This document shows positions 11,435 to 28,031 of a stretch of 64,000 nt of DNA, one piece after another. The stretch spans positions 14,840 to 78,839 of the forward strand of contig JABHWZ010000003.1 in assembly GCA_018657525.1 (NCBI GenBank). Reading direction: 5' to 3'. This DNA is from an archaeon (GTDB lineage: Archaea > Nanobdellota > Nanobdellia > Pacearchaeales > GW2011-AR1). Each line of letters starts with the position of its first letter. Positions within the stretch are counted from its first letter, which is position 1. The position numbers and the translations under genes are program-made. The notes under the pieces are model-generated. The model had not been told where the DNA came from, ran no database searches, and was given only the letters and a program-made list of their open reading frames with translations.

Positions 11435-11481
11435 CACGCTTAAAAATTTTATTTTTACCTCCGGGATTAAATTTCGCGTAA
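11435..11481. repeat. module F1 (CACGCT..AAATTT..CCTYCGG..AATTTCGCGTAA), copy 1
   Basis: Aligns by eye with 22365..22411 and partly with 32078..32113 (inside polB). Confidence 0.7.
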
Positions 11482-11488
11482 TTGCTCA

Positions 11489-11714
11489 CCCACTATGTAA
11501 TGAATATCTATATATTACAAAAGTTTTATGTTTCGCGAACAAGTCGCTCACTGCATTTTGAAATTATCTAAAGTTTTTCAAAACACAACGTCGGATATAA
11601 AATCCTTGCTGCATTTTGAAATTATCTAAAGTTTTTCAAAACACAAAGGTTCCCTTATAAAACTTTATTTTCACTCCCACTATGTAATGAATATATATAT
11701 TACAAAAGTTTTAT
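11489..11714. repeat. nested direct repeats A-x-B-y-B-z-A
   Basis: A = cccactatgtaatgaatat(ct)atatattacaaaagttttat at 11489-11529 and 11676-11714. B = a 38-nt perfect repeat at 11551-11588 and 11609-11646, separated by 20 nt. Confidence 0.9.
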
Positions 11715-12395: not shown

Positions 12396-12620
12396 GAAAG
12401 ATTATAAATATGGCCTCGATAACCTAAAGGTCACGAGAACCTGTAGGCAGGAGGGATTTAGTCGCTTCGCTCTCAACTTCGCTGAACATCAATTTCGCTA
12501 AAATTGACATAAACCATCGACAACTTCTGTGGAAGTAAAATATTTTTGAATTTCCAAACATTAAAATTTCTTTCAGAAATTGTTATAATCTTTTTGAGAA
12601 AGATTATAAATATGGCCTCG
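12396..12620. repeat. 23-nt perfect direct repeat (tRNA-Lys acceptor 3' strand plus 15 nt of 3' flank) bracketing a 179-nt GC-richer insert
   Basis: gaaagattataaatatggcctcg at 12396-12418 and 12598-12620. The insert starts with module GATAACCTAAAGGTCACGAGAACCTGTAGGCAGGAG. Confidence 0.9.
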
Positions 12621-12687
12621 AAGGGATTTGAACCCTCGACACCCAGATTAAGAGTCTGGTGCTCTGACCAGGCTGAGCTACGAAGCC
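12613..12687 (-). tRNA. tRNA-Lys (anticodon CUU)
   Basis: Hand-folded cloverleaf: GGCTTCG/CGAGGCC acceptor, GCTC/GAGC D stem, CCAGA-CTCTTAA-TCTGG anticodon arm, GAGGG-TTCAAAT-CCCTT T arm. 75 nt. Confidence 0.85.
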
Positions 12688-12774
12688 ATATATAAAATAA
12701 CTATTTATTAACAATTTAAAAAGATGTTGTTTTATCACAATTTATTTTAAAAAGGAGAATCTCTATTTTTCTTT

Positions 12775-13985: not shown

Positions 13986-14129
13986 TCATATTTTCTTATA
14001 AATTATAATGAGTATAACTCCTAAAATAATTATCCAGTAAATATAACTAATTGCTTTTGGGGGGAAGAAAAATATTGAGGTAAATAAAATTAAAATTATT
14101 GTGAATAAAATTTTTTTGAAATCAGTCAT
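13986..14129 (-). CDS. possible 47-aa two-TM micro-protein, start overlapping the tfs stop
   Basis: MTDFKKILFTIILILFTSIFFFPP..WIIILGVILIIIYKKI. Its ATG lies within the last codons of tfs (TATGACTGA). Confidence 0.3.
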   Translation of the reverse strand: MTDFKKILFTIILILFTSIFFFPPKAISYIYWIIILGVILIIIYKKI

Positions 14130-14430
14130 AGTTTCGATGTGTGTGGCTGCACTTTGTGCATTTGAAGAATTTTGTTTCTGCTTCGTCTGATGCTCGTGTT
14201 TGGACTGTCCAGAAGTATGCTTCTTCGTTTCCACATTTTGTGCATTTATCCTGAACAATTGGTTCTGTTTGAATATTTTGTTTAAGGACAGTTATTTTTT
14301 TTATTTCTGGACCTTTTTCAGAAGTTTTTAATTTTGTGACTTTTCCTTTTGAAATGTAACTGCATCTTGGGCAACCTAATTTTTTAGTTTTTTTTATTAG
14401 TACTGCTCCGCATTTTGGGCAAAATTCCAT
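14122..14430 (-). CDS. tfs: transcription factor S / RNA polymerase subunit M (TFIIS-type)
   Basis: N-terminal CPKCG..CPRC ribbon and C-terminal CTKCG...QTRASDE..F.CTKC ribbon carrying the acidic loop. Confidence 0.85.
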   Translation of the reverse strand: MEFCPKCGAVLIKKTKKLGCPRCSYISKGKVTKLKTSEKGPEIKKITVLKQNIQTEPIVQDKCTKCGNEEAYFWTVQTRASDEAETKFFKCTKCSHTHRNYD

Positions 14431-14620
14431 TATATGAATCTCCCTACTAATTTTGCATCAACAATGCTTTGCTGTGTTAGACAAAACTCCATTAGAAGAT
14501 ACTCCTTACTAATTTTGCATCAACAATGCTTTGCTGTGTTAGACAAAACTCCATTAGAAGATACTCCTTACTAATTCTGCATCAACGATATTTGAAGTTA
14601 TTAGATAAAATTCCATTATA
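14421..14620 (-). repeat. about 3.2 tandem units of 62 bp, each restarting with the tfs start (ATGGARTTTTGY)
   Basis: aaaa[tc]tccat at 14421, 14483, 14545 and 14607. The units encode 20-codon uORFs linked by UAAUG overlaps. Confidence 0.9.
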
Positions 14621-14688
14621 GTTTTTATAAGTCACTCTTTTTAAAACTTTTTATTTAGGATTTATGAGATTTTAAATGTTTTGATTGG

Positions 14689-15315
14689 TTAATTTTCTTT
14701 ACAAAATCCTTTTTCTTGTGGTGCCTTTAAACCTTCAAAAAATATTAATTTAATCCAACCTAAATATGGAGCAACTTTGAAGACTGCTTTTCCAACTATT
14801 TGATTTTCTTGGATATTTTTTTCAATTGATAATTGTCCATTGTTATTGTCGCCAATTGTTGAAAATGTTTTTTTGTCTTCAGTTTCATTTATTGCTATTA
14901 TTCTGTGGATTATCGGATGGGCCCTACCTGCATTGAATATTACTACATCTCCAACTTTTAGTTTATTTGTATTTGCGCCGATTATAAATAAAATGTCTCC
15001 TTTGTTGAATCCGTTTTGGAATATGAAATTTTTGAATGCTTCTTGGGTTAAATCAAAGTTTGAATATTTTGTTTTATGATTTTCCCACCAATTGGCATTG
15101 TTCGACAGTAAATTTCCTGAGTGATACATTGAGCATGATTCTACAATTGCTAATGGGAGAGTTGTTCCAGTTACTAAACTTAGAGTCGGGAAAAAAATAA
15201 ATTTGATTAATATAAATAGGAAGATTATAGAGATTATCCAGCCTTTAAATGAGTCGTCTTTCCAAACAGTAAAATAAAATTTATTCCACCATTTTTTGAA
15301 ATCCTCTTTTTTCAT
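14689..15315 (-). CDS. signal peptidase I, archaeal/Sec11 type
   Basis: N-terminal TM; catalytic-Ser context VESCSMYHSG; GDILFI; HPIIHRII His box. Confidence 0.75.
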   Translation of the reverse strand: MKKEDFKKWWNKFYFTVWKDDSFKGWIISIIFLFILIKFIFFPTLSLVTGTTLPLAIVESCSMYHSGNLLSNNANWWENHKTKYSNFDLTQEAFKNFIFQNGFNKGDILFIIGANTNKLKVGDVVIFNAGRAHPIIHRIIAINETEDKKTFSTIGDNNNGQLSIEKNIQENQIVGKAVFKVAPYLGWIKLIFFEGLKAPQEKGFCKEN

Positions 15316-21772: not shown

Positions 21773-22176
21773 TGGGATTTTTTGACGAAGACGGATTTGG
21801 AATAGAAGAGTTTTTTAAGAATTTTAATGGGGGAGAAAATGTTGCGGAATATACTACTGTTGGTTCAGACGGAAAAAAAAGAACTATGCGAAATACTCCT
21901 AGAAATTCAAAGGGTATTCCTGCGAAGCAGGTTGTTTCTCAAGATGAAGTTTTTTTTATTTTTGATTTTTCTGGAGAAAATAATGTTCATGTTGAAGTTG
22001 GAGATGAGTTAGTTTCTAATAATTATGGGGAAAAAGTTTCAACTGGACAAAAAGTTTTGAATATTAAATCATCTAGTAAAGATTTGGGAAATTTTGTTCT
22101 TTCTAAAAAGATTAAATTAAAAACGCTGGAGTTTACATTTAATAATGGAATCTTGGAGGTAAGTTTTAAAAAATGA
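21772..22176 (+). CDS. small Hsp20/alpha-crystallin-like protein
   Basis: The beta-sandwich-like C-terminal half ends in FNNGILEVSFKK (compare the NGVLxI motif). Sits between the two cdc48 genes with ATGA-type overlaps. Confidence 0.45.
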   Translation: MGFFDEDGFGIEEFFKNFNGGENVAEYTTVGSDGKKRTMRNTPRNSKGIPAKQVVSQDEVFFIFDFSGENNVHVEVGDELVSNNYGEKVSTGQKVLNIKSSSKDLGNFVLSKKIKLKTLEFTFNNGILEVSFKK

Positions 22177-22459
22177 AAAACGGATTAATGTTAGATATTG
22201 TTAAACCTAAAAGACACCCGCTGGTTTCTTTTGAACTTCCTCAAAGCTCGGCTCGGCGATTTCCAATTGCCTCCTGCGAAATCGCAAGGTTGTTAAGACA
22301 CTCGTTGATTTCTTTTGAACTTCCTCAAATATCGGTTCGGCAACATCTTTCAATAACTCAAGTCCACGCTCGTAAATTTGAAATTTGCCTTCGGAAGTTA
22401 ATTTCGCGTAAACTTTCGGCCTCCGAGGAATGTTGTGGGCTTCAACAAGGAGATAGAAA
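22173..22459 (+). repeat. 287-nt composite insert beginning with a diverged copy of the cdc48-2 start; the track ORF 22173..22463 is not considered a real gene
   Basis: ATGAAAAACGGATTAATGTTAGATATTGTT versus ATGAAAAATGGATTGATGTTAGATATTGTT at 22460. Internal 50-nt repeat (22213-22262 and 22297-22346), the GGAGGCAA-loop hairpin, and module F1. Confidence 0.85.
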
Positions 22460-24709
22460 ATGAAAAATGGATTGATGTTAGATATTGTTGAAGCAGAAAA
22501 AGATTATTTTGGGAAAAATGTTGTTACGTTGTCATTTGGTGATATGAAAAGATTAGAAATTGTTTCAGGAGATATTTTAAAAGTTAACGGAGAAAAGGAG
22601 TTATATTTTCGAGCAATTAGAACTAATTCCGAGGAAGGAACTATTGGGATTGATGGAGTAGCTAGATCAGTTATTGGGATTTCTGTTGGGGAAAAAGTTC
22701 GAGTTGAAAAAGCTAAAAAATTAGACAAACTAAAAGGGATTACTCTTTCTATTTTGCCAGATAATAATTATAGCAATGATCAGTTAAAGAGTTTTAATGC
22801 TCAGTTAAAAGAAAATGAATTTTTTAGGAAGGTGTTGATTGATTCTCCATTTACTTTAGGTCAGAAAATTTCTGTTCCAACTAATGTGGGCAATTTGACT
22901 TATGTTGTTTCAAAGTGTTTGCCGAAAAAATGTAGTTCGGGAATTGTTGCGGAAGGTACTCGTGTTGATGTAAGTGAGGAGGTTGGTGAGGGTTCAGGAG
23001 TTAATGTTTATTATGAAGATATTGGAGGGTTAAAAGAAGAGATAGAAAAGGTTAGAGAAATGATTGAGTTCCCAATGAATCATCCAGATATTTTCCAGAA
23101 GTTAGGGATTAGTGCACCGAAGGGAGTTTTGTTGACAGGCCCTCCTGGTACAGGTAAGACTCTTTTAGCGAAAGCTGTTGCAACTGAAACTGATGCTAAG
23201 TTTATTTCAATTGCAGGTCCAGAGATAATGAGTAAGTATCATGGGGGATCTGAAGAAAATTTAAGGGCAAAGTTTGAGGAGGCAGAAAAGAATTCTCCTG
23301 CGATTATTTTTATTGATGAGATCGATGCAATTGCTCCGAAGAGAGGAGAGACTCATGACCAGTCTGAGAAAAGGGTTGTTACTCAGCTTTTGACTTTGAT
23401 GGATGGTTTAAAGTCTCGAGGGCAAGTTGTGGTTATGGCAGCGACAAATCGTCCAGAAGATTTAGATGAGGCTCTTAGGCGGCCAGGAAGATTTGATCGG
23501 GAGTTAAGACTTAATCCTCCTTCTGATGCAGGTAGAAAAGAAATCTTGAAGATTCATACTAGAAATATGCCGTTAGGTAATCGGGAGGAAATTTTGGAAG
23601 AGTTTTCTAATAAGACTCTTGGTTATACTGGAGCTGATTTAGAAGTGCTTTGTAAAGAAGCAGCGCTTCGAGCGGTTAAACCATTTTATGCTAAGTTGGT
23701 GGGGATAGAGGATTCAGAAGAAGAGGCCTCGTCGCTGGATTTAAAGAAACAAGAATTGATTTCTCGGGTTGTTGTAACCAAAGAGCATTTTGATTATGCT
23801 ATGAAAATTGTGGAGCCGTCAGCGATGAGAGAAGTGTTGATTAAAAAACCTAATGTTAAATGGGAAGATATTGGAGGTCTTGAAAAAGCAAAGGATAAAT
23901 TACGTGAATTAGTTGAATTGCCGTTGGTGCGTCCGGATTTATTTGATATGGCTGGGATAAAACCCTCAAAAGGCGTTTTAATCTCTGGAGGACCTGGAAC
24001 GGGGAAGACACTTTTAGCGAAGGCAATTGCAAATGAGGCTAAGGCAAATTTCATTTCAGTAAAAGGACCTGAGCTGATTAGTAAATGGGTTGGTGAATCA
24101 GAAAAGCATGTTAGGGAAATTTTTAAGAAAGCTAGGCAAGTTGCACCAGCAATTATTTTCTTTGATGAGTTTGATTCAATTTCAAAATCTCGGGGGGGAA
24201 GTTTGAATGATTCTTCTGAGAAAGTTGTTAATCAGTTATTGACTGAGCTTGATGGAATTGAAGAGTTGGAAAAAGTTATTGTTATTGCGGCGACTAATCG
24301 GAAGGATTTAATTGATCCTGCTGTTCTTCGTCCTGGGAGAATTGATGCTTTGGTTGAATTAGAGATTCCAGATAAAGATACTCGAAAAAAGATTTTTGAA
24401 GTGCATACTAAGAAAATGCCTTTAGATAAATCTGTTAAATTAGATGAGTATGTTTCTAAGAGTGAAGGTTGGACTGGTGCAGACATTGAGGCTGTTTGTA
24501 GAAATGCTGGGATAAATGCGATTAAGGAAGTTTACAAGTTGGATAGTTCTAAAGGATTTAAAATTACAAAAAAAGATTTTGATTATGGCTTAGAAACTGT
24601 AGCACATTCTTCTGGAAGAGAAATTTTTGTAGATAAAAAGACTGGGAAAATTTCTGGGGCAGGGAAAAAAGGAAATTTAACTGAGAATAAAAAAATTAAG
24701 AAGAAATAA
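22460..24709 (+). CDS. cdc48: Cdc48/VCP-like AAA+ ATPase (paralog 2)
   Basis: Same two-AAA architecture ([16 protein letters not shown]). Confidence 0.95.
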
Positions 24710-26760: not shown

Positions 26761-26966
26761 TTTGATATTTTCATTCTTTTATTTTCCTAAATTTACTTAT
26801 GAAGAACCCCTCTGCTCGTGAACCTTCATTGTTATTGAATCTTCTGCTTGTCATTTTATTTTTTTGAATTTTGAAATGAAGAACCCCTCTGCTCGTGAAC
26901 CTTCATTGTTATTGAATCTTCTGCTTGTCATTTTATTTTTTTGAATTTTGAAATGAAGAACCCCTC
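26761..26966 (-). repeat. triplicated NSUN gene 3' end (77-bp units) plus a codon-diverged displaced end
   Basis: Units start at 26799, 26876 and 26953. See findings. Confidence 0.9.
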
Positions 26967-28031
26967 GGTATTATTATCATGAGGATAAACTCTGCAACAT
27001 AATTTTACTTTTGGGTTGAAATTTATTTTTGGATTTTTTTCAGACTTTGCTGTTCCCTCCCGCGAACCACCCTGGGACTCGCTTAGCTCGCTTGATTTAA
27101 TTAACGCAAAGTCTTCTTTTTTTGGATTCCATTCTGTGATTCCTTCTCGACATTTTATTGGGAGTTCTACTTTTTTGATTTTAATTTTATCTCCAAATTC
27201 TTCTAGGGCCCAACTTACTATTGCTTCGTTTTCTTCTGGGGCGTGAGTGCAAGTTGAGTAAATTATTTCTCCGTCAACTTTTAAAATTTCAAAAGCGTGT
27301 TTGAATAATCTTTTTTGAATTTGTGGGAGTGCTTTTGTTACATTTTTTATGTTCCACATTTTGTAGGTTTTATAAGCGCTTCTTAAAGTTCCTTCGCCAG
27401 AACACGGGGCGTCCACAAGGATTTTGTCAAATTTTATTTCTGGGTTGAATTTTGCTAATCTTTTACAAAGTGCGGCTCCTTCTTTTCTGCTGATTATTGT
27501 ATTTGTGACTCCGCATCTTTCTAGGTTTGAAGAAAGAATTCTGAGTCGGCCCATTGAAATTTCATTGGCGATTATTGCTCCTTGGTTTTCCATTGCTGCT
27601 GCTATCTGAGTTGTTTTGGATCCGGGTGCTGCGGCTAGATCTAGGATTAATTCTCCTGCTTTTGGTTTGAGTGCAATTATCGGAAGCATTGAGGCAAGTT
27701 CTTGAATATAATAATATCCGAGTAAATGTTCTTCTGCCCTTCCGAGTTCTCCTGGTTCAAGTGAGATTAAATTATTTTCAGAATTATATTTTCCTTCGAT
27801 AATCATGACTTCCGGGTTTGATTCCCACGGGCGAGATATTTTCCATGTTTTTTCTTCTAATCTTTTTTTTAATTTTTCAGGAGATATTTTTAAGGGGTTG
27901 CAACGGATAGAATTTACTGGTTTTATTTTTAGGATATCCAAATAGGATTGAAAATCTTTTTTATCTGGAAGAAGCTGTTTTATTCGTTCTTCGAATTCAG
28001 GTTTCATTTCTGGAATTTTTATTTTTGTCAT
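26928..28031 (-). CDS. NOL1/NOP2/Sun-family RNA cytosine-C5 methyltransferase
   Basis: DLAAAPGSKT SAM motif; DAPCSGEG and YSTCT catalytic Cys motifs; C-terminal EGFFI. Confidence 0.85.
   Translation of the reverse strand: MTKIKIPEMKPEFEERIKQLLPDKKDFQSYLDILKIKPVNSIRCNPLKISPEKLKKRLEEKTWKISRPWESNPEVMIIEGKYNSENNLISLEPGELGRAEEHLLGYYYIQELASMLPIIALKPKAGELILDLAAAPGSKTTQIAAAMENQGAIIANEISMGRLRILSSNLERCGVTNTIISRKEGAALCKRLAKFNPEIKFDKILVDAPCSGEGTLRSAYKTYKMWNIKNVTKALPQIQKRLFKHAFEILKVDGEIIYSTCTHAPEENEAIVSWALEEFGDKIKIKKVELPIKCREGITEWNPKKEDFALIKSSELSESQGGSREGTAKSEKNPKINFNPKVKLCCRVYPHDNNTEGFFISKFKKIK

Follow-up and report, generated by a model that had tools for sequence, protein, structure and literature searches.

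Experiments in Haloferax and E. coli have demonstrated termination-reinitiation between genes that overlap by -1 or -4, an effect that collapses with distance, and a short 3' part of the upstream ORF has been found sufficient for coupling (Huber et al. 2019, 2023; PMC6728339, PMC10666635). Ribosomes also bind uORFs whose AUG is 5'-terminal on SD-led mRNAs, and such uORFs can affect the cistron that follows (Beck et al. 2016, PMC4965119). [quoted passage not shown] 2015, PMC4633059; Canestrari et al. 2020, bioRxiv 10.1101/834739). The E. coli cleavage-factor gene greA has a special autoregulatory leader with a terminated small RNA (GraL) and an intrinsic terminator (Dylewski et al. 2019, PMC6829880).

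The array of tandem 62-nt units described here lies directly upstream of the archaeal gene tfs in the window (the whole 64-kb stretch of DNA analysed). It shares with the overlapping pairs the 1-nt UAAUG overlap of co-directional ORFs and an SD motif inside the upstream ORF, and overlaps are likewise common in this genome, 10/40 co-directional gene pairs of the 64-kb window overlapping by -4 or -1. In contrast to those pairs, the ORFs upstream of tfs are decoys of 20 codons that reproduce the start of the gene they precede, the units are in tandem, so that a ribosome would be handed over serially, up to three times or more, the first mini-ORF is predicted to be leaderless, and the heteromeric-complex logic does not apply. 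The layout predicted for tfs, a leaderless short ORF followed by an SD-led real gene, is also that of the 5'-AUG uORFs and of the mycobacterial leaderless first-cistron sORFs, but these are bacterial, single-copy and not derived from the start of the regulated gene. The counterpart of the Cys-attenuator duplex at the tfs junctions would be a helix between the core of one unit and the head of the next ORF, which was predicted at 7/10 junctions and is 96% compatible but shows no real covariation; furthermore, the mycobacterial sensors need a run of cysteine codons, whereas the unit peptides contain no conserved codon run.

In eukaryotic leaders of the GCN4/ATF4 type, serial short uORFs and reinitiation set the ribosomes that reach the main ORF; such leaders involve scanning and long spacers, whereas the tfs array is archaeal and consists of near-identical repeats with one-base junctions. 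Bacterial contingency loci carry tandem repeats, usually of 1-10 nt, that switch a gene on or off. The tfs array resembles them in its head-to-tail units between promoter and gene, in a copy number that appears to vary among close relatives and in recombination or slippage as the putative mechanism of change; however, because each 62-nt unit would be a complete coupling module, tfs should stay expressed at any copy number, unlike genes at contingency loci. The likeness to greA, a functional analogue of TFS, is a special leader on the gene for a transcript-cleavage factor; it is an analogy of gene function only, since the tfs leader has no terminator-like structure and no sequence or architectural similarity to GraL.

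Organization of tfs and the 62-nt units

The features of the locus, all on the minus strand, are as follows.

14122..14430, minus strand: tfs (transcription factor S, 102 aa; Pfam PF01096/PF02150)
13986..14129, minus strand: hydrophobic 47-codon ORF (MTDFKKILFTIILILF...), its ATG overlapping the end of tfs
14555..14616, minus strand: unit A, 62 nt, mini-ORF MEFYLITSNIVDAELVRSIF*, predicted leaderless
14493..14554, minus strand: unit B, 62 nt, mini-ORF MEFCLTQQSIVDAKLVRSIF*
14431..14492, minus strand: unit C, 62 nt, mini-ORF MEFCLTQQSIVDAKLVGRFI*, its stop overlapping the tfs ATG
14552..14556, minus strand: stop/start overlap TAATG, A to B
14490..14494, minus strand: stop/start overlap TAATG, B to C
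14428..14432, minus strand: stop/start overlap TAATG, C to tfs
14564..14569, minus strand: SD-like AAGGAG before the unit B ATG
14502..14507, minus strand: SD-like AAGGAG before the unit C ATG
14440..14445, minus strand: SD-like AGGGAG, 9 nt ahead of the tfs ATG
14570..14586, minus strand: conserved core of unit A, GTTGATGCAGAATTAGT
14508..14524, minus strand: conserved core of unit B, GTTGATGCAAAATTAGT, with anti-head GCAAAAUU
14446..14462, minus strand: conserved core of unit C, GTTGATGCAAAATTAGT

The tfs product was assigned to TFS by PF01096 (E = 5.5e-16) and PF02150 (E = 5.8e-07), and the N-terminus MEFCPKCG is kept among its homologues (n = 964). The 47-codon ORF overlaps the end of tfs through its ATG (overlap sequence ATGACTGA), so that its co-transcription with tfs is probable. 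A comparable small overlapping ORF was also seen directly 3' of tfs in one relative (L005), and a gene for an Lrp/AsnC-type regulator lies two genes upstream of the tfs array.

Three head-to-tail 62-nt units occupy 14616..14431 directly upstream of the tfs ATG at 14430, each beginning with ATGGA(A/G)TTTT, running through 20 open codons and an (A/G)GGAG motif, and ending in TAATG on the next start. A sequence-only reading of this DNA had reported the 62-nt repeat, its start positions and three 20-codon ORFs, together with a one-base TAA/ATG overlap and a GGAG about 10 nt before each downstream ATG, and we recovered all of these, the overlap and the motif at all three junctions (GGAG at -13..-10 relative to each next ATG); the GAG/TGT codons that it noted in place of the tfs GAA/TGC occur in units B and C. 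Tandem Repeats Finder delimited the repeat at 14420..14586 (period 62, 2.7 copies, 93% matches, score 285), and a repeat search returned three in-register 62-nt copies with identities of 100/87/71%, whereas a unit-length match was expected 0.00 times in shuffles of the window. The spacing of the SD-like motif at tfs is that of internal operon genes in the window, and a 5-bp mini-hairpin (AGGAG-UAU-CUUCU) is possible at the AAGGAG motifs before units B and C. Unit A is the most divergent of the three. Unit B is an exact chimera of the first 48 nt of C and the last 14 nt of A, the outcome of one duplication or deletion of 62 nt that was out of register.

Every unit head copies the first 13 nt of tfs (ATGGAATTTTGCC), and the similarity to tfs ends there, the remaining ~49 nt resembling neither tfs nor its promoter to any detectable degree. 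Derivation of the unit body from tfs coding sequence was rejected by local alignment against nine tfs genes (z~0), and nhmmer matched unit positions 1-42 to tfs 5' ends only weakly (E 0.02-0.7) and mainly through the head. The core type upstream of tfs is GTTGATGCAAAATTAGTAAGGAG-like. Within the core of unit A lies an 'anti-head', CAGAAUU, whose complement is nt 5-11 of the ORF that follows; in unit C the anti-head (GCAAAAUU, 14456..14449) complements tfs nt 5-12 perfectly over 8 nt. No further unit copy was found in the 64 kb, either with up to 3 mismatches or by profile search, or elsewhere in the flanking DNA of about 110 loci, all copies lying directly upstream of tfs. A plus-strand ORF at 14434..14574 (46 aa) was dismissed as a by-product of unit repetition, being impossible in single-unit lineages.

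Promoter and predicted transcription start

Promoters were scored with a matrix trained on the window's own leaderless genes. Among first genes in the window, the majority are leaderless and have a TATA box that ends near -23, and SD motifs precede internal genes. Two TATA-like boxes were found by the matrix in the spacer upstream of unit A.

14638..14646, minus strand: proximal TATA-like box TTTTAAAAA, centred at -26 from the unit A ATG
14670..14676, minus strand: distal TATA-like box TTTAAAA in AAACATTTAAAATC

The proximal box scores 10.4 bits and puts +1 precisely on the unit A ATG (14616), a geometry that it shares with most first genes of the window; it is the best site of the whole spacer, lies in the top percentile of the window and is predicted to be the main promoter of the unit-tfs transcript. 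The distal box (7.4 bits, implied +1 at 14647) would leave a 31-nt leader before unit A and matches the tfs promoter of unit-less relatives (L005 and L006 were compared; AAACATTTAAAAG in L005), and the window spacer upstream of unit A is identical at 30/40 positions to the tfs promoter of unit-less L103. Internal promoters within the units were rejected because the matrix gives -9.0 to -2.4 bits ahead of B, C and tfs. In relatives L008, L022 and L098 the best site likewise falls at 0/+1 of the first unit ATG (9.1-9.6 bits), and the mRNA 5' end is accordingly predicted at the first unit AUG in four lineages; placement at the first ATG is less clean in L093 and L039, which carry divergent units. 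Of 87 tfs loci, 58 have a site scoring 4 bits or more at the ATG of tfs; in the unit-bearing loci this site is lost. The sequence-only reading had held that a transcription start downstream of all units would speak against its proposal; the predicted start falls on the first unit ATG.

Distribution and copy number in relatives

A unit array directly upstream of tfs was found in the window lineage and in four other Pacearchaeota-like lineages, across which TFS identity is 64-79%. There are three copies in the window, two in L001, one each in L008, L022 and L098-L101, at least two in L102 and at least three in L090, the unit numbers between lineages being 1, 1, 1, 2-3 and at least 3; the invariant number that the sequence-only reading would have counted against itself was thus not what we found (1, 2-3, at least 2 and at least 3 units). 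Two further relatives carry divergent versions that begin with the tfs head, one of 68 nt that stops 2 nt before the tfs ATG (L093) and one of 58 nt that stops 7 nt before it (L039); in L039, comparison of the unit body with that genome's own tfs or upstream spacer was not significant. About 85 other relatives have no unit, and tfs there is leaderless as judged by promoter position. They include close relatives of unit-bearing strains, namely L005 (TFS 86% identical to that of L008) and L092 (92% to that of L090). Pattern matches in the metagenomes L089/L091 were discarded as chance hits within a coding region.

Copy number also differs at short range. L098 and L102 have one and at least two units, respectively, with tfs differing by 2.5%, and the window has three units where contig L001, otherwise 100% identical over ~6 kb, has two and lacks unit B; this within-strain difference may be due to assembler collapse. 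Source samples include ERZ27237545 for the two-unit form and ERZ4200990 and ERZ23491642 for the three-unit form. Three contigs end inside the array. The array as a whole was rejected as an assembly artefact on the grounds of its presence in independent assemblies and in five lineages.

Sequence conservation of the units

Unit identity between lineages is 75-84%, whereas that of tfs third-codon positions is only 54-64% and 35-57% of tfs 4-fold sites differ; because the units are more conserved than tfs third-codon positions, they are under constraint. By the per-site differences (head 0.12, core 0.10, middle 0.52, the middle being saturated), this constraint is regional, confined to head and core, and not peptide-like. 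A conserved micro-protein was not supported, because codon-position differences (0.19/0.22/0.28) show weak periodicity only and most unit changes are non-synonymous; the unit peptide is variable except for MEF..L and VDA.L.

There are no indels among the units, and the 62-nt length, the frame and the stop/start overlap are kept. In a permutation test, six units all open and with a stop at nt 61-63 were unexpected (P~0.013), whereas openness alone was not significant (P=0.27), the A/C-rich middle offering few possible stops anyway. TAATG is present at every 62-nt-family junction in the four other lineages, which amounts to 5/5 family lineages vs 6/85 unit-less loci, and the SD-like motif occurs in 6/7 unit-bearing vs 10/85 unit-less loci, although the unit-bearing lineages are homologous, so that 5/5 and 6/7 are not independent observations. 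The 20-codon frame with its UAAUG overlap is kept in relatives, where its absence had been named beforehand as an argument against a termination-reinitiation ladder; as anatomy, the ladder architecture holds.

Proposed mechanism

We favor, with a probability of about 0.55, the reading that the units are a transcribed and translated 5' leader of relay mini-cistrons, with leaderless entry at unit 1 and hand-on by termination-reinitiation. The ancestral state would have been a leaderless tfs with its ATG ~26 nt after the TATA box, as in relatives, and a duplication or insertion copying the first ~13 nt of tfs would have placed a decoy start where the leaderless one had been and moved the real tfs downstream by 62 nt, TFS expression being kept only where the decoy ORF ended on the real ATG. 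In the present arrangement RNA polymerase would start at or within 1 nt of the unit A ATG, and the 5'-terminal AUG of unit A would load ribosomes that translate its 20 codons. The translating ribosomes would melt a junction stem-loop in which the core (GCAAAAUU) is paired with codons 2-4 of the next ORF, an unmasking that would free the SD and UAAUG, and termination at the UAA that overlaps the next AUG by one base would be followed by re-initiation aided by (A/G)GGAG 9-10 nt upstream. The hand-over would be repeated through units B and C and then to tfs. The pairing and folding results given below with the structural alternative (core:next-head compatibility, predicted folds, the 8-nt complement, the anti-head counts and the L090 core/head matches) speak for this junction stem. 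Because some ribosomes are probably lost at each hand-over, TFS output should scale with the number of units, probably decreasing as units are added. Having its own SD, tfs might also be translated independently of the units.

Units would be gained and lost by unequal recombination between identical stretches, and recombination between a unit head and the tfs head could delete the whole array precisely, which would account for the patchy distribution. From sequence we infer uORF translation, coupling, the transcription start and a dosage effect, and only by inference would the units have a regulatory or rheostat role for TFS. The stronger claim, that the array is a heritable and reversible TFS dosage rheostat of hand-over modules that recombination adds, removes or erases, head-head recombination restoring a leaderless tfs, is one that we put forward tentatively and consider rather unlikely. 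More speculatively, the leader might exert feedback on TFS activity as well, in the manner of the E. coli greA leader.

Alternative explanations

The array could instead be a structured RNA leader in which the mini-ORFs are incidental and the head/core helices or protein binding mask or expose the tfs SD and AUG, a reading that we consider unlikely. Conservation that is regional and not codon-like fits two stem arms and a variable loop, and the 4-fold sites of the core (GTT GAT GCA ... GTA) are as invariant as its other sites. The core:next-head pairing is compatible in 96% of cells vs 36-63% when slid; together with the helix between a unit's own head and core, compatibility across units is 92-96%. 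Where the core:next-head helix was the predicted fold, the SD and UAAUG/AUG sit in its loop; all z-scores were negative, if modest, and the junction helix of L093 reaches 12 bp (z=-3.0). The perfect 8-nt complement between core and tfs head was recovered by an independent inverted-repeat scan as well, and the anti-head is specific to unit-bearing leaders (6/7 vs 2/84 unit-less loci, the two exceptions, L057 and L026, being mere TATA box tails). In L090 the last core, CAGAAUU, pairs with the tfs head AAUUCUG and an internal core, CAAAAUU, with the internal head AAUUUUG, and L008 has an A x C mismatch at a site where L090 has a compensated pair; nevertheless, neither helix showed statistically meaningful covariation in the 7 sequences.

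A purely structural role leaves several features unexplained: the constant length of the saturated 'loop', the open frame with a UAA exactly on the next AUG in a variable tail (the permutation result above), and a promoter placement that makes the first AUG 5'-terminal. Fold energies were also ordinary. An exceptionally stable RNA was rejected because whole-unit and whole-leader folds were no better than shuffles (z~0), and Rfam 15 matched only two tRNAs and no cis-regulatory RNA at the gathering threshold, a permissive scan of 14300..14800 giving chance-level matches only. A transcription attenuator of the trp/his type was rejected on the same folds and on a search of 14050..14750, which contained T4 runs only and no terminator-like site.

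Less probable still, in our estimate, is a neutral scar, that is, a tolerated tandem duplication across the tfs start, with the compact genome retaining only duplications that leave one intact gene copy and with conservation reflecting concerted evolution or recent spread. Similar events are visible in the same window, where a 77-nt array lies on the 3' end of an RsmB-like gene and a copy of the cdc48 head lies 287 nt upstream of cdc48; L039 has an apparently younger, separate event without an SD, many close relatives have no unit (L005 and L092 among them), and the unit peptide is not conserved. On the other hand, the units exceed tfs synonymous-site conservation although other intergenic sequence of these lineages is barely alignable, and the SD, UAAUG and anti-head are retained. 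Moreover, the heads of units from different lineages have GTCTAAC in common and not the GCCCAAA of the tfs in their own genome; they therefore go back to one old event and were not re-copied recently. The sequence-only reading had offered an insertion duplicating the gene's 5' end as an equal alternative. As an account of origin it stands, since the ~13-nt head copies the tfs start, whereas as a full explanation it is insufficient, there being no terminal inverted repeats, no dispersed copies and a conservation well above the synonymous-site level.

A role at the DNA level, either as periodic regulator-binding sites or as weak promoters with the core AAAATTAG as TATA box, is very improbable. 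In its favor, the core shows nucleotide-level conservation, one core reaches a promoter score of 4.6 bits (with +1 at 14483, within unit C), and the Lrp/AsnC-type gene two genes upstream would supply a candidate regulator. However, promoter scores before B, C and tfs are negative throughout, the core is still conserved in single-unit lineages, where a start driven by it would lie within tfs, it lacks dyad symmetry, and neither the frame nor the stop/start overlap is explained.

The least credible reading, finally, sees the array as left behind by a mobile or integrative element that duplicates its target gene's end, an account of origin only and not of function: it would accommodate the ~49 nt of each unit that are unlike tfs or promoter, and the window's tRNA-Gln, tRNA-Glu and tRNA-Lys genes are each followed by inserts and then by copies of their own 3' ends, but known elements are larger than 49 nt, the tRNA-associated inserts showed no similarity by eye, expansion has kept an exact 62-nt register as expected from recombination between repeats, and a dispersed repeat or MITE was rejected for want of other copies in the 64 kb or in the flanks of about 110 loci and of inverted termini, a scan of 14400..14700 giving only head/core complements and AT-rich promoter matches.

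Implications of the relay arrangement

If the relay of mini-cistrons is correct, duplication of its own start can turn a leaderless archaeal gene into a coupled, SD-led internal cistron, and the relatives would provide a ready-made series of 0, 1, 2 and 3 units for studying archaeal termination-reinitiation and leaderless initiation. Should copy number scale TFS output, the array would be a simple, recombination-driven means of tuning a core transcription factor in DPANN archaea, which have a very small regulatory repertoire. In compact genomes, an insertion at a gene start may be retained only where its decoy ORF terminates on the true start. In practical terms, the array breaks assemblies and can mislead start-codon calling.

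At the cdc48 locus of the same window we observed a like design of decoy ORF and true start. Small ORFs beside CDC48 in L005/L006 proved to belong to another Cdc48 paralogue and were uninformative on the 96-aa ORF of the window.

Anatomy of the array upstream of tfs

The leader of tfs, the gene for transcription factor S (TFS), is a real, conserved and copy-number-variable element built of mini-cistrons that copy the gene's own start. The 258-nt minus-strand spacer between a peptidase-like gene and tfs holds three head-to-tail 62-nt units:

14689..15315, minus, peptidase-like gene
14616..14555, minus, unit A, 20-codon mini-ORF MEFYLITSNIVDAELVRSIF, then stop
14554..14493, minus, unit B, 20-codon mini-ORF MEFCLTQQSIVDAKLVRSIF, then stop
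14492..14431, minus, unit C, 20-codon mini-ORF MEFCLTQQSIVDAKLVGRFI, then stop
14122..14430, minus, tfs

The sequence-only reading had claimed three 20-codon ATG ORFs in 62-nt tandem units before tfs, which was confirmed by ORF listing and repeat searches; the proposed one-base overlap of each unit's TAA with the following ATG (TAATG, the junction) was found at all junctions, and the GGAG said to precede the downstream ATGs is present as (A/G)GGAG at -14..-9. Tandem Repeats Finder scored the array at 285 (period 62, 93% matches), a separate search recovered three copies, all in register, and the chance expectation of a unit-length match was 0.00. No further unit copy was found elsewhere in the 64-kb window. 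Unit B is an exact chimera of the first 48 nt of C and the last 14 nt of A, the pattern that a single 62-nt duplication out of register, or the converse deletion, leaves behind. The gene 3' of the array is a bona fide TFS (PF01096 and PF02150), whose N-terminus MEFCPKCG is kept in homologues.

Distribution and copy number

TFS homologues carried the names Pacearchaeota, Woesearchaeota or Nanoarchaeota, the closest being 77% identical, and the order of peptidase-like gene then tfs is conserved in relatives. The array itself is patchily distributed among the related loci compared (L numbers).

Units found 5' of tfs
Window, L002, L003: 3 units
L001: 2 units
L008: 1 unit; TFS 76-77% identical to that of the window
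L022: 1 unit; TFS 65% identical
L098-L101: 1 unit
L102: at least 2 identical units; same TFS protein as L098, tfs DNA 2.5% different
L090: at least 3 units (contig ends in array); TFS 64% identical

Two further loci bear atypical units. In L093 (632-800), a strong promoter-like site is followed by a decayed ~66-nt unit copy in which ATG has become ATA (ATAGAATTTTAC...), then by an intact divergent 68-nt unit (MEFCHLSDCVCEVVDKISKER, then stop) that stops 2 nt before tfs; by this arrangement, L093 offers a naturally occurring leader whose first mini-ORF has lost its 5'-terminal position. The 58-nt unit of L039, in which no SD was found, has a head matching its own tfs over ~22 nt and stops 7 nt before tfs; it looks like a younger and probably separate event. 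The unit is absent at ~85 other tfs loci, among them close kin of unit-bearers: the TFS of unit-less L005 is 86% identical to that of L008, and that of unit-less L092 is 92% identical to that of L090. A route to loss is readily imagined: a unit head recombining with the identical tfs head would excise the array exactly. Apart from unit B, nothing separates the window from L001-L004 over ~6 kb (100% identity), so the 2- versus 3-unit difference may reflect either true instability of the repeat within one strain or a collapse by the assembler; L004, L090 and L102 terminate inside arrays.

Constraint on the unit

Between lineages, units are 75-84% identical versus 54-64% at tfs third-codon positions, and 35-57% of tfs 4-fold sites differ. 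That the units are conserved beyond the synonymous level points to some function, and the constraint, as read from the alignment, is regional rather than peptide-like.

Pairwise difference along the unit
nt 1-18, head (includes the copy of the tfs start): 0.12
nt 19-30, A/C-rich middle: 0.52 (saturated)
nt 31-53, core plus SD: 0.10
nt 54-62, tail: 0.32

Differences at the three codon positions were 0.19, 0.22 and 0.28, with non-synonymous changes in the majority, and thus there is no strong coding signature. The aligned 62-nt units contain no indels and all are open; in the variable tail, the TA that forms a stop codon with the A of the next ATG never changes. A permutation test gave P=0.27 for openness alone, an unremarkable value, and P~0.013 for all six units being open and also stopping at the junction. 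TAATG precedes tfs in 5/5 family lineages versus 6/85 unit-less loci, and an SD-like motif in 6/7 unit-bearing lineages versus 10/85 unit-less loci, counts that are not independent as unit-bearers share ancestry. Unit heads across lineages share GTCTAAC, versus GCCCAAA in each genome's own tfs; the 62-nt family therefore descends from one old event, without continual re-copying from tfs.

Predicted transcription start

In most first genes of the window a TATA box (TTTATAAA or TTTAAAA) has its end close to -23 relative to the ATG, and these genes are therefore leaderless, while internal operon genes have GGAG-type SD motifs in front. In a promoter matrix built from 34 such first genes, the highest-scoring site of the spacer, at 10.4 bits and in the window's top percentile, implies +1 exactly at 14616, the A of the unit A ATG, where transcription is thus predicted to start; equivalent positions before B, C and tfs scored -9.0, -2.4 and -2.4 bits. 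The best sites in L008, L022 and L098 (9.1-9.6 bits) fall at 0/+1 of the first unit ATG, and in L093 an 8.8-bit site points to the decayed head's first base. The tfs ATG itself has such a site at 58/87 loci (median 6.8 bits) but not in unit-bearing loci. The spacer 5' of unit A is identical at 30/40 positions to the tfs promoter of unit-less L103. These comparisons suggest that tfs was ancestrally leaderless and that the first unit ATG now occupies the old tfs position.

A candidate junction stem-loop

The core holds GCAAAAUU (the anti-head), which is complementary to nt 5-12 of the ORF that follows (AAUUUUGC in tfs), and an inverted-repeat scan recovered this complement independently. Core and next head can pair in 96% of alignment cells versus 36-63% when slid; pairing of the core with its own unit's head is possible in 92%. 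In local folds, 7/10 junctions, L093 and L039 among them, form the core:next-head helix with the SD and UAAUG in the loop (12 bp, z=-3.0 in L093), and in the remaining 3/10 the SD region pairs with the tfs head. Junction z-scores were negative in 10/10 but modest, and folds of the whole leader and of whole units were no better than shuffles. The 40 nt before tfs include an anti-head in 6/7 unit-bearing lineages versus 2/84 unit-less loci, again with shared ancestry making the counts non-independent; in those two loci it is a mere TATA-box tail. In L090 the last core, CAGAAUU, matches its own tfs head AAUUCUG, and the internal core, CAAAAUU, the internal head AAUUUUG; at the base pair that differs between the L090 cores, L008 is mismatched. 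The stem-loop is specific and plausible, if unproven.

Relay translation and its alternatives

The mechanism best supported is the relay proposed from sequence, with a probability of roughly 0.55, control of TFS by the array being only putative. Transcription would begin on the unit A AUG, giving leaderless ribosome loading; the ribosome would translate 20 codons and open the junction stem, terminate on the UAA overlapping the next AUG, re-initiate with SD aid, and repeat the hand-over unit by unit into tfs. The array has the format of termination-reinitiation as established by experiment, a process that depends on -1 or -4 overlaps and is lost as the spacing grows to about 20 nt (PMC6728339, PMC10666635). 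In this genome, overlaps of these lengths are frequent (10/40 co-directional pairs). Bacteria have 5'-terminal AUG uORFs on SD-led mRNAs (PMC4965119) and leaderless short ORFs controlling a masked downstream ribosome-binding site (bioRxiv 10.1101/834739). No account of relay uORFs that are both repeated in tandem and derived from a gene's start was found for archaea.

An RNA-only leader would account for the regional conservation but does not explain the fixed length, frame, junction stop or promoter position. The array matched no Rfam family, and no terminator was found at the leader. A neutral scar would agree with other end-straddling duplications in the window, yet does not fit the conservation of the units. 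DNA-level sites or internal promoters fit poorly with the negative matrix scores before B, C and tfs. As to origin, the array may be a mobile-element footprint, its 49-nt unit body being untraceable, but it has neither inverted termini nor dispersed copies. Within the relay reading, the array may be either adaptive, as a dosage rheostat, or a merely tolerated, compensated duplication.

Other repeats and neighbouring genes

26777..26966, minus, 77-nt tandem array straddling the stop codon of an RsmB/NOL1-type methyltransferase gene (26928..28031)
22173..22463, plus, 96-aa ORF without Pfam match (region 22167..22499)
11479..11714, intergenic nested direct repeats
58140..58460, 136-nt direct repeat
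56020..56600, minus, tRNA-Gln(CTG) (56506..56580) and inserts
56106..56297, minus, tRNA-Glu(CTC) with a 117-nt anticodon-loop intron
12396..12419 and 12598..12621, exact 24-nt direct repeat
13986..14129, minus, 47-codon strongly hydrophobic ORF (MTDFKKILFTIILILF...)

The 77-nt array, a 3'-end mirror image of the tfs array, comprises two 100% identical copies and one older diverged copy, each re-supplying the C-terminus ...EGFFISKFKKIK and stop (...EGFFISKFRKIKE and stop in the last). The 96-codon open frame starts over the stop of the preceding gene, opens with the first 14 codons of downstream cdc48 (46-nt repeat, spacing 287 nt) and has an 84-nt repeat within it, where GC content is relatively high. 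At its end it overlaps the real cdc48 start as ATGA, with AAGGAG in front of that start; it shares the tfs-unit design of a decoy ORF ending on the true start. Among the nested repeats is an exact 38-nt pair with 58-nt spacing (11551-11588 / 11609-11646); repeats of 35 nt and 24 nt, at ~185-nt spacing, flank it. The copies of the 136-nt repeat are 83% identical at a spacing of 185 nt, and a 20-nt motif has a third, partial copy; the repeat lies in the interval from gene 57610..58134 to ORF 58392..58826.

Behind tRNA-Gln stand two extra copies of its last ~16 nt (ATCCTGGAGGGGCTAT) with inserts between. Motif GGCACAAGAACCTGAGGACAGGAT and a hairpin, TTCGAACC-AA-GGTTCGA, both lie in the first insert. 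Neighbouring tRNA-Glu is followed by an insert of this type and then by a copy of its own 3' end. These inserts are possibly integration scars or non-canonical tRNA introns. Default ARAGORN and Rfam missed tRNA-Glu(CTC), which ARAGORN detects only with intron search. One copy of the 24-nt repeat crosses the 3' end of tRNA-Lys(CTT) (12612..12688, minus) and the other lies 202 nt downstream; the pair looks like attachment sites around a very short remnant.

The hydrophobic ORF's ATG overlaps the tfs end (ATGACTGA), and L005 has a similar small overlapping ORF behind tfs. Directly past tfs, several relatives (L006:3087-3419, L094:1219-1554, L097:1336-1668) have a second TFS/RPB9-like gene of ~110 aa (weak PF02150, faint PF01096) encoded on the other strand; the window has a radical-SAM-like gene there instead.
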